DNA of 31,967 nt from an uncultured candidate division Zixibacteria bacterium (GTDB lineage: Bacteria; Zixibacteria; MSB-5A5; UBA10806), in assembly GCA_963817915.1 (NCBI GenBank), contig CAWFQL010000005.1:1-31967 (forward strand). Reading direction: 5' to 3'. The notes below the pieces were generated by a model. The model saw nothing but the letters and a program-made list of their open reading frames with translations. It made no database searches and was not told the DNA's origin. Shown one piece after another: positions 25,099 through 31,242 of this stretch. Every line of letters starts with the position of its first letter. Position 1 is the first letter of the stretch. Made by a program: the position numbers and the translations under genes.

Positions 25099-25148
25099 TT
25101 GACGACGCCAAATAATTCTTTATATTTCGTCATATGACGAAATATAAA
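25099..25148 (+). promoter_or_regulatory. ars promoter with a 30-bp perfect palindromic operator
   Basis: TTGACG-N16-TATATT; TTTATATTTCGTCAT|ATGACGAAATATAAA at 25119..25148. Confidence 0.8.
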
Positions 25149-25595
25149 AATGACCAAATGCGGAATCTGCTGGATCTCACCGGGGCTTTATCGGATGAAA
25201 ACAGGATTCGCATATTGATGCTTCTCGACCACGCGGAGCTATGTGTTTGCCAGATCACTGCGGTCCTTTCATTGGCGCCATCGACTATTTCAAAACATTT
25301 ATCAATTCTCGAAAATTCAGGCCTGATTAGCAGGCGTAAGGATGGCAGATGGGTGTTTTATAGATTAAATAATTCAAACTTACTGGAGCCGGGTGGCGGC
25401 CTATTTAATCTGATAAAAAAATCGGTAAGCGGTAATTGCGATATTTTAAATGATAGAAAAAAAATCAAAGCGCTTCTTAAAGAAGATGTTAATGCCGTTT
25501 GCAAACGGCTATATCACGATGACGATTCAGAATCACAAATTAGGGGTCGAATAAATGGTTCGCGAAAGAAAGCACAAGCTATCGTTTCTAAATAG
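25134..25595 (+). CDS. arsR: ArsR/SmtB-family metalloregulator (start may be ATG 25158)
   Basis: [18 protein letters not shown] (alpha3 As-binding motif), [15 protein letters not shown]. Confidence 0.93.
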
Positions 25596-26616
25596 ATTTT
25601 TAACTCTCTGGATATTCCTGGCAATGGCGGCCGGCGTTGGTCTCGGATATTTGGTACCGTCGATTGAAGGTTTTATCAGTCAATTTCAGGTGGGCACAAC
25701 CAATATCCCGATAGCGATCGGCCTGATTTTGATGATGTATCCTCCCCTGGCGAAAGTACGATACGAGGAAATGGGCAGAGTCTTCCGCGACTGGAAGGTT
25801 TTGTCCCTATCGCTGATTCAGAATTGGGTAATCGGCCCAATACTGATGTTTATACTTGCCATTGTCTTTTTGCGAGGATATCCGGAATATATGGTCGGCC
25901 TGATTCTAATCGGATTGGCCCGCTGTATCGCCATGGTGATTGTCTGGAATCAATTGGCCGAAGGTGATTCTGAATACGCCGCGGGATTGGTGGCGTTCAA
26001 TAGCGTATTTCAGGTTTTATTTTATAGCGTTTACGCCTGGGTATTTATCACGATTCTGCCGGGATGGTTTGGAATAGAGGGCAAAATCGTGGATATTTCA
26101 ATGGGCCAGATCGCCAGGAGCGTATTCATATATTTGGGGATACCATTTATAGCCGGAGTTATTACACGATTCTCTCTGATCGCTATTAAAAATAAACAAT
26201 GGTATCACGAAAAATTTATCCCAATTATCAGCCCGATCACGCTTATCGCTCTTATATTCACTATCGTTGTCATGTTTAGTCTCAAGGGCAATTATATTAT
26301 TTCAATTCCGTTGGATGTGGTCAGAATAGCAATACCGCTCCTGATATATTTCATAGTAATGTTTTTCGTAAGCTTCTATATGAGCTATAAGATAGGGACT
26401 GATTACCCAAAGTCGGCTTCGCTGTCATTTACAGCGGCATCCAACAATTTCGAATTGGCTATTGCAGTTGCCGTGGCGGTATTTGGTATTAATAGCGGTG
26501 AGGCGTTCGCGGCGGTGATAGGGCCGTTGGTGGAAGTGCCGGTACTTATAGCACTGGTAAATGTGGCATTTTATTTTAAGAGAAAGTATTACCATCTTCA
26601 AGAGGCCAATGTTTGA
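25555..26616 (+). CDS. acr3: ACR3-family arsenite efflux transporter
   Basis: [44 protein letters not shown]. Confidence 0.97.
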
Positions 26617-26622
26617 CAAGCA

Positions 26623-27045
26623 ATGAATAAGCCTGCGCACAAGAAAGTTCTTTTTCTATGTATCCACAATTCGTCGAGGTCGATCATGGCGGAGGCGCTG
26701 GTAAATTATTACCTGAGCGACAAATGGGAAGCTTACTCTGCCGGAAGCGACCCGACTGTAGTGAATCCTTATGCAATTCAGGCGCTCAAGGAAATAGGAA
26801 TCGAGATTCCAAATGCCAAGTCCAAAAACATGAAGACATACGCAGGGGTTAATTTTGATCTTATAGTCACTCTTTGCGATGAAGCCAGAGAATCGTGCCC
26901 TGTCTGGATCGGCTCCGCAAAAAAGGAGCATATCAGCTTCGCGGACCCATCGAAGGCGACAGGTAGTGATGAGGATAAATTAATCATATTTTGCGATATT
27001 CGAGATGAGTTGAAAGATAAGATTATAAACAGGCTTTCAAATTGA
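26623..27045 (+). CDS. arsC: Thioredoxin-coupled arsenate reductase (LMW-PTP fold)
   Basis: P-loop CIHNSSRS (CX5R), LCD..ESCP, FADP. Confidence 0.93.
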   Translation: MNKPAHKKVLFLCIHNSSRSIMAEALVNYYLSDKWEAYSAGSDPTVVNPYAIQALKEIGIEIPNAKSKNMKTYAGVNFDLIVTLCDEARESCPVWIGSAKKEHISFADPSKATGSDEDKLIIFCDIRDELKDKIINRLSN

Positions 27046-27055
27046 AGGAGTTTCT

Positions 27056-29045: not shown

Positions 29046-29048
29046 TTT

Positions 29049-29715
29049 ATGTTTTCAGTAAGAAATTTAAGCAAGATTTATACTGGTCGACACGGCGTAG
29101 TACGGGCGTTGGATAAGCTTTCATTTGATATTGAGCGCGGTAGTTTTGTGACTGTTACCGGCAGTTCCGGCTCGGGGAAATCGACTTTGCTTTTAACCCT
29201 CGGGGGCTTGATTCGACCGACAGAAGGCGAAGTCAGCTTTGGCGGAATTAGCATGTTCGATTCTACCGGGTTCGAATCTAGCCCAATACCGGAGCGCGAA
29301 AGTCGGATTTGTCCTGCAGACATTCAATCTTGTGCCATATTTATCCGCCGTTGAGAATGTCATGCTGCCGATGATATTCAATGTCAGCCCTAACGGCGAC
29401 CATCGACGACGGGCAGAAATTCTTTTGGAGAAAGTCGGACTTCAAGGTCGGCAGGAACATCTGCCACGTGAACTATCAGTGGGACAACAGCAAAGAGTGG
29501 CTATTGCAAGGGCTCTTTCCAACAATCCTGAGGTCATACTTGCCGATGAGCCAACTGGCAATCTCGATCCGAATCTTTCAATAGAAATTTTGCAGATTTT
29601 AAAAGGATTGAACGAAAAAGAAGCTCGAACTATAGTCATGGTAACTCATAGTCCCGAGGCCGCGAAAATTGGCAACCGAAAATTACGATTAAATGACGGG
29701 GCGCTGATAGAATGA
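29049..29715 (+). CDS. LolD/MacB-type ABC ATP-binding protein; frameshift near 29269
   Basis: Walker A GSSGSGKST in ORF 29049; LSVGQQQRVAIARAL, ILADEPTGNLD, VTH in ORF 29239. Confidence 0.92.
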
Positions 29716-29761
29716 ATTTGAATGCAATCATTCTGCGTGACACCTGGAGGATAAATCCGAA

Positions 29762-30503
29762 ATGAAAATATTAATTTCCATTTCAAAAATGATAGTTTTG
29801 CTAATATTGATTCTACAAGGTCCTGCCTTTGCCGGGCCAAAGTTGAAATTATCCGAAGTGGAGTTTGATTTTGGCAATGTGCCGCAGATGGCCAAAATTT
29901 CCCATGACTTTTGGCTTTATTCGATCGGGGACGATACTCTTAAAATTCTCAAAGTCAGCCCTGGCTGAGGCTGCACCCAGGCGCCTCTTGATAAAGAGGT
30001 TCTTGCTGTAGGTGACAGCACGAGACTCGAAATTATTTTTAATACCGGCAAATATGTGAACGCCATTTCCAAGTCTCCGGTAATTTTAACAAATGAAGGA
30101 CCACAGAAACAGCATTCTCCAAATAAAGACAAATATCTTTACAAGTCCGGATTCTACATTACCGATAACCATCATGCCGTCAATAATCGATTTCCCTGAT
30201 TCGGGCGAAACAATAGTGAAAGAGTATTATTTTTCCATCACTAACAAATCGAAGCAGCCCCTGCGCCTCACCCTGGTCAGTTCTCCTAAATCTCTGGTTT
30301 CGGTCACTCTTCCAAAAACGATTCCGGCCGGCGACTTTGCGGATGGCATCATCAAGCTTAAGGATGTGGCAATGAATAAGGTTTTTGAGAAATCAGTTAC
30401 CATAGAGCTTAACGACGCCAGCCATACCCGGTTTACCATACCAATTAAGCGCGGCACTGTCCCACCGCCTAAGCCAGCGGCCAAGGGGCAAGGTAGTCAT
30501 TAG
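29762..30503 (+). CDS. Secreted DUF1573-like (Ig-fold) protein, candidate selenoprotein (UGA at 29966..29968); additional frameshift near 30110
   Basis: FDFGNV..HDFWLYSIGDDTLKILKVSPG*GCTQAPLDKEVLAVGDSTRLEIIFNT..ILTNE, then ORF 30093..30503 supplies a second Ig-like domain. Confidence 0.8.
29969..30019 (+). promoter_or_regulatory. Putative bacterial SECIS element
   Basis: CCTCTT-GATA-AAGAGG hairpin (29984..29999), G-first loop with 21 nt between UGA and loop; extendable lower pairing. Confidence 0.7.
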
Positions 30504-30555
30504 TATTATTTGGAAATTGTCGACAAGAAAATTTATTAATAGCAGGAGGTTCTTT

Positions 30556-31242
30556 GTGAAGCGTTTATGCATAATGACTGCCATTTTCTTTCTGGTTTTT
30601 GCGATGGCCTGCAAGAAATCATCGGAAATCCCGGCGCGCGAGGGCGCGGGCTCTAATTCAGGCACGACACAGTCTGCCTCATCATCTTCGCAATCATCAA
30701 CAACTACGCCAGTCCCAGTGTCTAATTCAAATGTGGCTGTACCTCTTAAACCCGCTGAAACTGTTACAGCTTTGGGTATGAATCCACCGCACGGACAACC
30801 GAATCATCGGTGCGACATATCCGTGGGAGCGCCGCTTAATTCACCTTCTGGTGTGCGGCCTATATCACCCACAGTCTCGCAACAAAATGTCCCTGCTCAG
30901 GCTTCAACGCCCTCAACAGCTCCAGGTATGAATCCACCCCACGGACAGCCAAATCATCGGTGCGATATCGCTGTGGGAGTACCGCTCGATTCGCCTCCAG
31001 GAACGGGAAAATCGGCGCCACCAGCTGGCTCGCCGCTAATCAACCCCAGCCAGGGCAATACAGCGCCGACAGCGCAAGGCATGAATCCACCGCACGGACA
31101 ACCGAATCATCGGTGCGATATCTCCGTAGGAGCGCCGCTCAATTCGCCTCCGGGAACAGGAAAGCAGCAGACGCCAAATACCACGGGACCTTCCTCGTCG
31201 ACAGGCTCACCTCCTATTAAAATTGTGCCAACGCCAAAATAA
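30556..31242 (+). CDS. Pro/Ser/Thr-rich lipoprotein with three GMNPPHGQPNHRCDIxVGxPL repeats
   Basis: RBS AGGAGG plus GTG; lipobox AMA-C; three near-identical His/Cys motifs. Confidence 0.85.
   Translation: MKRLCIMTAIFFLVFAMACKKSSEIPAREGAGSNSGTTQSASSSSQSSTTTPVPVSNSNVAVPLKPAETVTALGMNPPHGQPNHRCDISVGAPLNSPSGVRPISPTVSQQNVPAQASTPSTAPGMNPPHGQPNHRCDIAVGVPLDSPPGTGKSAPPAGSPLINPSQGNTAPTAQGMNPPHGQPNHRCDISVGAPLNSPPGTGKQQTPNTTGPSSSTGSPPIKIVPTPK

Follow-up and report, generated by a model that had tools for sequence, protein, structure and literature searches.

The 31,967-nt contig CAWFQL010000005.1 of an uncultured candidate division Zixibacteria bacterium (GenBank assembly GCA_963817915.1) carries an arsenic resistance (ars) operon that runs on into a conserved cell-envelope module. 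The whole contig was analysed and is called the window; it is contig C5 of a 3.33-Mb genome in 22 contigs. Eight co-oriented genes occupy positions 25134-31242 on the + strand. The first three, arsR, acr3 and arsC, form an ordinary ars operon. They are followed by genes for a secreted thioredoxin-like protein (TrxL), an FtsX/MacB-type permease, an ATP-binding cassette (ABC) ATPase, a DUF1573 selenoprotein and a probable lipoprotein. TrxL, the permease and the ATPase make up a trio that is fixed, widely conserved and linked with ars genes across many lineages. The thiols and the selenol of the module likely bind arsenite, As(III), or antimonite, Sb(III), outside the cytoplasm, and the MacB-type machine likely passes the metalloid on or expels it; this reading has about an even chance of being right. 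Gene content and order, protein motifs and folds, the selenocysteine (Sec) machinery and the linkage between trio and ars genes are established. The conserved envelope module in the ars island is new and undescribed; the ars core and the DUF1573 selenoprotein family are already known.

Linkage of the trio with ars genes

The trio was followed through three sets of loci: those in relatives' genomes, those in a genome collection with one genome per species (47 loci) and those on metagenome contigs (80 loci). The sets partly overlap and include kin, and their counts are not independent; nine of the 47 genome loci are the same contigs as relatives' loci. TrxL is present in 11 of the 41 genomes searched, with the window's own genome counted. 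In all ten loci from relatives, TrxL is followed by the permease and ATPase genes, with arsR, acr3 or arsC beside them and with several gene orders. The permease gene lies within 90 nt of TrxL in 45 of the 47 genome loci and the ATPase gene is adjacent in 45. An ars match (ArsR-family, acr3 or arsC) is found in 43 of these loci; ArsR-family genes account for 35, acr3 for 28 and arsC for 23, and acr3 or arsC lies inside the locus in 32. Three of the four genome loci without an ars match are contigs shorter than 4 kb; in the fourth, TrxL stands at the contig start. The metagenome contigs agree: the permease follows TrxL in all 49 loci that offer 1300 nt or more for it, and an ars match is present in 68 of the 80 loci and in 36 of the 37 that are 6 kb or longer.

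The metagenome-assembled genome (MAG) labels of the 47 loci are Zixibacteria, Ignavibacteria, Eisenbacteria, Bacteroidales/Bacteroidota, Gemmatimonadetes, Neomarinimicrobiota and, once, Proteobacteria. Gene order is variable, with ars genes upstream of the trio, downstream of it or on both sides. In L039, a locus from a close relative, the five accessory genes stand between arsD-arsA-acr3-arsR-arsC and arsR-arsP; arsM is added in L032 and L050. Of the 35 genome loci with a comparable match, 27 have a C-x-C motif, mostly ELCVC, in the nearest ArsR. The host genome has four other FtsX-type permease matches (contigs C11, C12 and C16), none of them on C5, the acr3 contig. Because both MAG labels and gene orders vary, chance adjacency is untenable.

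The original prediction treated all five accessory genes as one ars-linked system. This is strongly borne out for the trio by the counts above. It is moderately borne out for the DUF1573 gene, which joins the trio in 12 of the 47 genome loci and 11 of the 80 metagenome loci and follows the ATPase gene in the window's nearest relatives. For the lipoprotein gene the agreement is weak (2 of 47 and 3 of 80 loci), and the two relatives that carry the lipoprotein have it in non-ars contexts.

In several other lineages the trio is flanked by Thioredoxin_3, DGC-domain, rhodanese, YeeE/YedE (Sulf_transp) and DsbD/CcdA-like genes (L032 7152-9252; L050 6648-9453 and 17609-18376; L026 5030-5722). These neighbours suggest that the thiol/sulfur equipment of such ars islands is broader.

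Organisation of the operon

All eight genes that had been predicted are present. The ArsR gene (25134-25595, +) matches HTH_5 with 57.7 bits and NF033788 with 91 bits (cut-off 55); its ELCVC motif contains Cys37 and Cys39. The arsenite efflux permease gene acr3 (25555-26616, +) scores 457.9 bits against TIGR00832 (cut-off 282.8) and has no other match in the genome. The arsC gene (26623-27045, +) encodes an enzyme of the low molecular weight protein tyrosine phosphatase (LMW-PTP) type, putatively thioredoxin-coupled: LMWPc is matched with 60.6 bits (cut-off 23.2), and Cys13-x5-Arg19, Cys85 and Cys92 are present. Its score against TIGR02691, 118.8 bits, is under the cut-off of 174.3. No arsA, arsD, arsB, arsH, arsM or arsP was found among the window genes scanned against Pfam and NCBIfam.

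The intergenic gaps are, in order, 6, 10, 11, 3, 46 and 13-52 nt, and a + strand terminator scan of 27000-31242 returned nothing convincing; its only match is a stem of six pairs at 28844-28859, within the permease gene. The predicted run of closely spaced genes (gaps up to about 52 nt) with no convincing internal terminator is present, as are the predicted motifs: CxxxC and CC in TrxL, GCC in the permease, UGC in the DUF1573 protein and H-H-C in the lipoprotein. A strong terminator at 24905-24930 ends the upstream operon, and the gene after the lipoprotein gene is convergent. Upstream of arsR lies a sigma-70-like promoter, TTGACG-16-TATATT (25099-25126, +), which is a consensus match only (10 of 12 positions). 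It overlaps a perfect palindrome with 15-nt arms (25119-25148) that spans the arsR ATG and is a candidate ArsR operator.

The TrxL protein

TrxL (27056-27814, +) is a secreted protein of 252 aa with two tandem thioredoxin-like domains and a disordered C-terminal Cys tail. An AlphaFold2 (AF2) model from a 50-sequence alignment has a mean predicted local distance difference test (pLDDT) score of 89.7, with the tail disordered from about residue 233. Foldseek gives probability 1.0 to Pyrococcus PDO, Eps1p, the AhpF N-terminal domain, PDI b-b' and calsequestrin, at low whole-model TM-scores (0.26-0.34) and 8-18% identity. TrxL shares two consecutive thioredoxin-like domains with such tandem proteins (PDO is 1a8l); unlike them, it has an additional C-terminal Cys tail and lacks a CxxC active site. 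In both sequence and model, neither domain has CxxC at the canonical position, the start of helix 1. The earlier description of the protein as Trx-like is correct for the fold.

The cysteines of TrxL lie elsewhere. C161xxxC165 is inside the domain 2 helix at residues 154-167, and the tail reads G-C235-C236...C247. Across the 128 loci, C161 is conserved in 125 of 128, C165 in 116 of 128, C235 in 111 of 117, C236 in 108 of 114 and C247 in 98 of 102.

TrxL has no Pfam or NCBIfam match, and its identification as ArsD (PF06953), SaoC or SaoT was rejected, as it matches none of them. The family comprises 49 clusters by word-indexed search and 728 representatives at 50% identity by exhaustive search (E<=1e-3). 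In a language-model atlas, TrxL groups with unnamed clusters of Bacteroidota and Planctomycetota. A distant branch with about 20% identity (P0027, P0028, P0032, P0039, P0046 and P0048; L021 9003-9839, - strand) ends in KKSCSGK(S/A)GCC-COOH, a C-x5-CC-COOH pattern. In L021, the only locus of this branch that was examined, the branch protein likewise lies between ars genes and a MacB-type permease and ATPase.

The permease and ATPase

The permease gene (27826, or 27793, to 29045, +) encodes an FtsX/MacB-type protein of the type VII ABC class (PF02687 56.1 bits, cut-off 25.5; PF12704, MacB_PCD, 41.7 bits, cut-off 27). Its profile matches the structures of MacB, YtrF, LolF and LolC/E. The protein has just three cysteines, encoded at nt 28255-28257 and 28546-28551, all of them in the periplasmic domain. 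Their alignment columns are conserved in 44, 42 and 43 of 44 sequences; the pair is missing from just two sequences, L065 and L067, both of which are frameshifted.

The ATPase gene (29049-29715, +) is LolD/MacB-like, and its ABC_tran domain is found in two pieces. The gene is whole in L039, where it scores 229 bits against the LolD model. Its nearest relatives are LolD, MacB and FtsE. NCBIfam equivalog cut-offs are not reached by the permease or ATPase: LolD scores 229 against 308, lolCE 49 against 362 and MacB 62 against 966.

Type VII ABC systems include MacAB-TolC, LolCDE-LolA, FtsEX-EnvC and YbbAP-TesA. The trio shares with them the FtsX C-terminal domain, the MacB periplasmic core domain and a cognate ATPase. 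According to the parts consulted of a preprint on the class, each such system serves one dedicated periplasmic partner (bioRxiv 10.1101/2025.05.16.654284); a dedicated periplasmic protein is likewise encoded beside the permease of the trio. The trio differs from these systems in having no adjacent MacA-type adaptor or TolC gene in the window, and in its conserved periplasmic Cys triad, its thioredoxin-fold partner and its ars context.

The DUF1573 selenoprotein

The fourth accessory gene (29762-30503, +) encodes a secreted two-domain DUF1573 protein of the OS_HP2 type (PF07610 56.6 bits, cut-off 26.1). Its TGA codon at 29966-29968 lies in the motif PG-U-G-C-T and replaces the first Cys codon of the DUF1573 CGC motif. 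TGA is found at this position in all 14 genes compared (window and 12 genome loci), and the metagenome copies have an in-frame stop at the motif in 11 of 11 cases. A true stop between two genes is ruled out, as the TGA is conserved and the frame continues past it in relatives for 150-330 codons.

The genome can support this reading. The genes selB, selA and selD and tRNA-Sec lie side by side on contig C6, and the selenocysteine machinery is complete. They form a compact operon, selB-selA-selD-tRNA-Sec, at G000 C6:198041-202493; selD itself has one in-frame TGA. A candidate hairpin at 29978-30005 (+) resembles a selenocysteine insertion sequence (SECIS) and starts 13 nt past the TGA. In both DUF1573 subgroups, hairpins start 13-16 nt and about 38 nt after the UGA; they are compatible with a SECIS-like function, which is not proven.

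OS_HP2/DUF1573 'UGC' proteins are a known predicted selenoprotein family (Zhang and Gladyshev 2007, PMC1976440; PMC9312934, PMC13188914), as far as the consulted parts of these sources describe it, and the window protein belongs to it. The two share a DUF1573 domain that passes the Pfam cut-off, Sec in U-G-C, and secretion. The window protein differs in scoring below the cut-off of 100 for the NCBIfam OS_HP2 model NF041425, with 54.8 for domain 1; the intact L077 orthologue reaches 77.8 over the whole protein. The parts of the family literature consulted mention no link with ars genes or with MacB-type ABC systems.

The DUF1573-Sec protein is not specific to ars loci, since a Sec paralogue lies on contig C12 beside a DUF58 gene. 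This paralogue (L069 5900-6865, - strand, equal to G000 C12:83899-84864) has the motif VKPG-U-GCT, and its neighbours are the DUF58/VWA gene and two Por_Secre_tail proteins. Reading its TGA as U requires three TGA codons, and an indel is possible there too. A Cys-type paralogue is found on contig C11.

The repeat lipoprotein

The last gene (30556, or 30517, to 31242, +) encodes a probable lipoprotein with three HGQPNHRC repeats, (G)MNPPHGQPNHRCDI, at 30790-30813, 30940-30963 and 31093-31116. The repetition is at protein level only; no tandem repeats were found in the DNA of the gene. The repeat consensus, which is remarkably well conserved, is (G/L)(M/L)NPxHGxPxHRCDIxVGAPL, present two to five times per protein with low-complexity linkers between (P0054-P0169). 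The repeat family has no Pfam model. Its clusters number more than 3583 and come mostly from Bacteroidota (Pedobacter, Flavobacterium, Ferruginibacter), but also from Zixibacteria and Dadabacteria; all are annotated as hypothetical and are lipoprotein-like. It is a large and uncharacterised family that probably binds metal, and its set of two His, Cys and Asp appears closer to a Zn or Cu site than to an As(III) site.

The lipoprotein gene is found in the cluster only in L039, L064, L077, L078 and L092. The lipoprotein is also found in two of 40 relatives (G004 and G026), among unrelated genes. An ars-specific role is ruled out by these unrelated neighbours and by the size and mainly Bacteroidota distribution of the family. 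The lipoprotein is a loose, lineage-specific addition to the module, and its arsenic link is weak.

Frameshifts in three accessory genes

None of the eight genes is missing, but in the sequence as given three of the five accessory genes have an interrupted reading frame, which the original prediction did not notice. The permease gene has a single frameshift within 28890-28905, at a T4G3C4 tract. A single frameshift within 29258-29278 splits the ATPase gene into two frames, and the DUF1573 gene has a single frameshift within about 30097-30117. Each break is one shift at a short homopolymer; homology is undisturbed on either side and there is no other lesion.

These shifts are most likely private indels and assembly errors. 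Among the 33 ABC_tran domains of the genome, 30 are whole and three are split likewise into adjacent frames; other genes of the contig also look broken; the ATPase halves, and likewise the DUF1573 domains, are in one frame in short-read metagenome orthologues (L076-L079 and L092); and in L039 the DUF1573 gene is shifted elsewhere along its length. The last two observations also rule out programmed frameshifting. The broken genes on the same contig are the TonB receptor gene, whose last 35 or so residues are apparently out of frame, PdxJ and an ArgZ-like gene. PdxJ (window 20661-21389) matches just profile positions 107-233, and the convergent gene for an ArgZ-like C-terminal region (window 31343-31967) lies in several frames; both are probably damaged by indels. 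Private frameshifts are also seen in the permease, DUF1573, acr3 or TrxL genes of L027 (the same as L012), L039, L065 and L067, which come from MAGs with very few or very long contigs. This is consistent with an indel problem linked to technology rather than with biology.

It is alternatively possible, and in our view unlikely, that the shifts are real and that the accessory genes are decaying into pseudogenes in this host, with only arsR-acr3-arsC working. Three frameshifts inside 3.4 kb are denser than about three per 33 ABC domains genome-wide, as decay would have it. On the other hand, each break is a lone shift at a short homopolymer with clean flanking homology, unrelated genes of the same contig are broken too (those for the TonB receptor, at its end, for PdxJ and for the ArgZ-like protein), and other loci from MAGs with few contigs have private shifts of their own (the L012/L027 permease, the L039 DUF1573 gene, L065 and L067).

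Proposed function of the module

The arrangement suggests a pathway for As(III) outside the cytoplasm. ArsR, with its ELCVC motif, would leave the palindrome on binding As(III) and so derepress the whole unit. ArsC and Acr3 would then deliver As(III) into the periplasm, where the flexible CC...C tail of TrxL may bind it through three sulfurs. The permease would receive TrxL at its periplasmic domain, where a further conserved Cys triad is found. As other type VII ABC systems do, the machine would use ATP hydrolysis for mechanotransmission, and this step could strip or expel the metalloid or reset the TrxL carrier. In this lineage the secreted U-G-C selenoprotein might add a selenol/thiol site of higher affinity.

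A stronger version of this proposal is a tentative one, and we give it less credence than the general reading. It holds that the trio is the first metalloid-dedicated type VII ABC machine and a periplasmic counterpart of ArsD-ArsA: a chaperone with a Cys3 tail would hand As(III) to the Cys triad of the permease for ATP-driven clearance of the envelope, with an obligatory selenocysteine (U-G-C) protein added in some lineages.

Several points weigh against metalloid handling by the module. As(III) binding by the Cys motifs is proposed by likeness to the three-Cys sites of ArsD and ArsR; ArsD and some ArsR proteins have three-sulfur As(III) sites. The periplasmic cysteines could be mere structural disulfides, and C165 and the third tail Cys of TrxL are not invariant. 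No HlyD/MacA-type or outer-membrane factor (OEP) gene was found in the window operon, which leaves no obvious exit route; the HlyD and OEP genes in L032 and L026 are part of neighbouring RND-type sets. Uncharged As(OH)3 is not known to require assistance in passing the outer membrane. In Eisenbacteria-type loci, ArsR has ELCVS and not ELCVC. Four genome loci (L026, L033, L047 and L055), each with 10 kb or more of sequence after the trio, have an ArsR gene only, without acr3 or arsC. Finally, three frameshifts in 3.4 kb could signal decay of the module in this host.

The same genes could instead serve periplasmic thiol-redox maintenance or repair, induced by arsenite because envelope dithiols are a target of As(III); in that case TrxL and the U-G-C protein would be ABC-powered redox or chaperone proteins and not metalloid carriers. 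This explanation is improbable. In its favour, the tandem thioredoxin fold of TrxL is PDI/PDO-like, L032, L050 and L026 have DsbD/CcdA-like, Thioredoxin_3 or DGC genes close to the trio, and the U-G-C pair of DUF1573 is typical of redox selenoproteins in the review tables consulted (PMC9312934, PMC13188914). Against it, neither TrxL domain has a canonical CxxC, the best-conserved TrxL cysteines are in the disordered tail, there is no DsbD-like gene in the window operon, and the permease keeps a Cys triad that a pure motor would not need.

A less probable explanation than redox repair is that the substrate is another soft metal, metalloid or organometal (Sb, Bi, Hg, Cd, Se/Te, or methylated or thiolated arsenicals) and that the trio resides in ars islands for regulatory convenience. 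The genes for the organoarsenical proteins ArsM and ArsP flank the trio in L032, L050, L039 and L040, and the four ArsR-only loci would fit such a substrate. Mercury and organometal systems, SAO among them, repeatedly show CC and U-C motifs, as far as the consulted parts of the SAO description go (bioRxiv 10.1101/2022.07.06.499078). However, acr3 or arsC lies within 32 of the 47 genome loci, and no mer, cop or czc gene is directly beside the trio in five annotated loci. The nearest regulator also has mostly ELCVC, a motif that we take to mark ArsR proteins of As(III)/Sb(III)-type specificity.

Least probable by a wide margin is that the five genes are an unrelated neighbour operon, with a generic Lol/MacB-like transporter and hypothetical genes, that follows arsC by chance: the region does contain promoter-like hexamers, though 18 were found against 14.4 +/- 3.8 in shuffles, and the idea is already contradicted by the synteny counts, by a linkage that recurs under six MAG group labels with differing gene orders, and by the short window gaps without a convincing + strand terminator.

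Comparison with known systems

The first three genes of the window match the canonical arsR-acr3-arsC operon, with an ELCVC ArsR, an Acr3 above its equivalog cut-off and an LMW-PTP ArsC. The window differs from that operon in its five further co-oriented genes, none of which is a named ars gene.

ArsD-ArsA offers a functional analogy. It likewise has a thioredoxin-fold protein with a vicinal Cys pair and a third Cys beside an ATPase-driven arsenic machine; the metalloid site of ArsD is Cys12/13/18. In contrast to ArsD, TrxL is secreted, has two domains, carries its cysteines in a C-terminal tail and has no ArsD Pfam match; its partner would be a type VII ABC system and not ArsA. In L039, genuine ArsD and ArsA are present separately from TrxL.

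The SAO system of Clostridioides difficile and other anaerobes is an ABC operon with extracytoplasmic CC, CU and U proteins, and in the parts of its description that were consulted it is read as handling heavy metals or organometals (Haft and Gwadz, bioRxiv 10.1101/2022.07.06.499078). Like the trio, it combines an ABC operon with a secreted Cys-Cys-COOH protein (SaoC) and a thioredoxin-like protein (SaoT). It differs, on the same partial reading of the source, in having a MetI-like importer and substrate-binding proteins, in being centred on a MerB-like lyase and in not lying in ars operons. None of the Sao models NF040734, NF040730, NF040733 and NF040729 scores above cut-off for TrxL, its CC-COOH branch or the permease, which does not match SaoP; the ATPase fragment reaches 44.8 bits with the SaoA model (cut-off 360). 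SAO is the nearest concept to the trio; by these profile comparisons it has no homology to it.

No description of MacB/FtsX-type systems in ars operons was found in the literature searched, which did not extend to subscription journals and supplements. An FtsX mention in PMC8477397 was set aside, as it concerns an unrelated Xanthomonas gene.

Other features of the window

The operon upstream of the ars genes (window 21575-24852) encodes a TonB-dependent receptor with CarboxypepD_reg and Plug domains and an HmuY-like lipoprotein. Between its terminator and the ars promoter, window 24973-25076 contains two more perfect inverted repeats, one with 11-nt arms 28 nt apart and the other with 10-nt arms 22 nt apart. 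Window 12031-13533 encodes a protein of 501 aa whose Pfam matches, both weak, are Toxin_10 (the P42 family of insecticidal crystal toxins, E 4.4e-09) and Vps62.

Biological significance

Arsenic resistance is described almost wholly as cytoplasmic chemistry and inner-membrane efflux; the presence of the trio in at least six MAG groups suggests an unrecognised extracytoplasmic step. The module offers a context and a testable hypothesis for the TrxL family and for DUF1573 'UGC' selenoproteins, and less so for lipoproteins with HGxPxHRCD repeats. If As(III) binding is true, it would represent a new substrate class for type VII ABC systems and a natural use of selenol against a metalloid. If the trio is a metalloid-dedicated machine, the chemistry between arsenic and selenium would gain a genetic basis in resistance.

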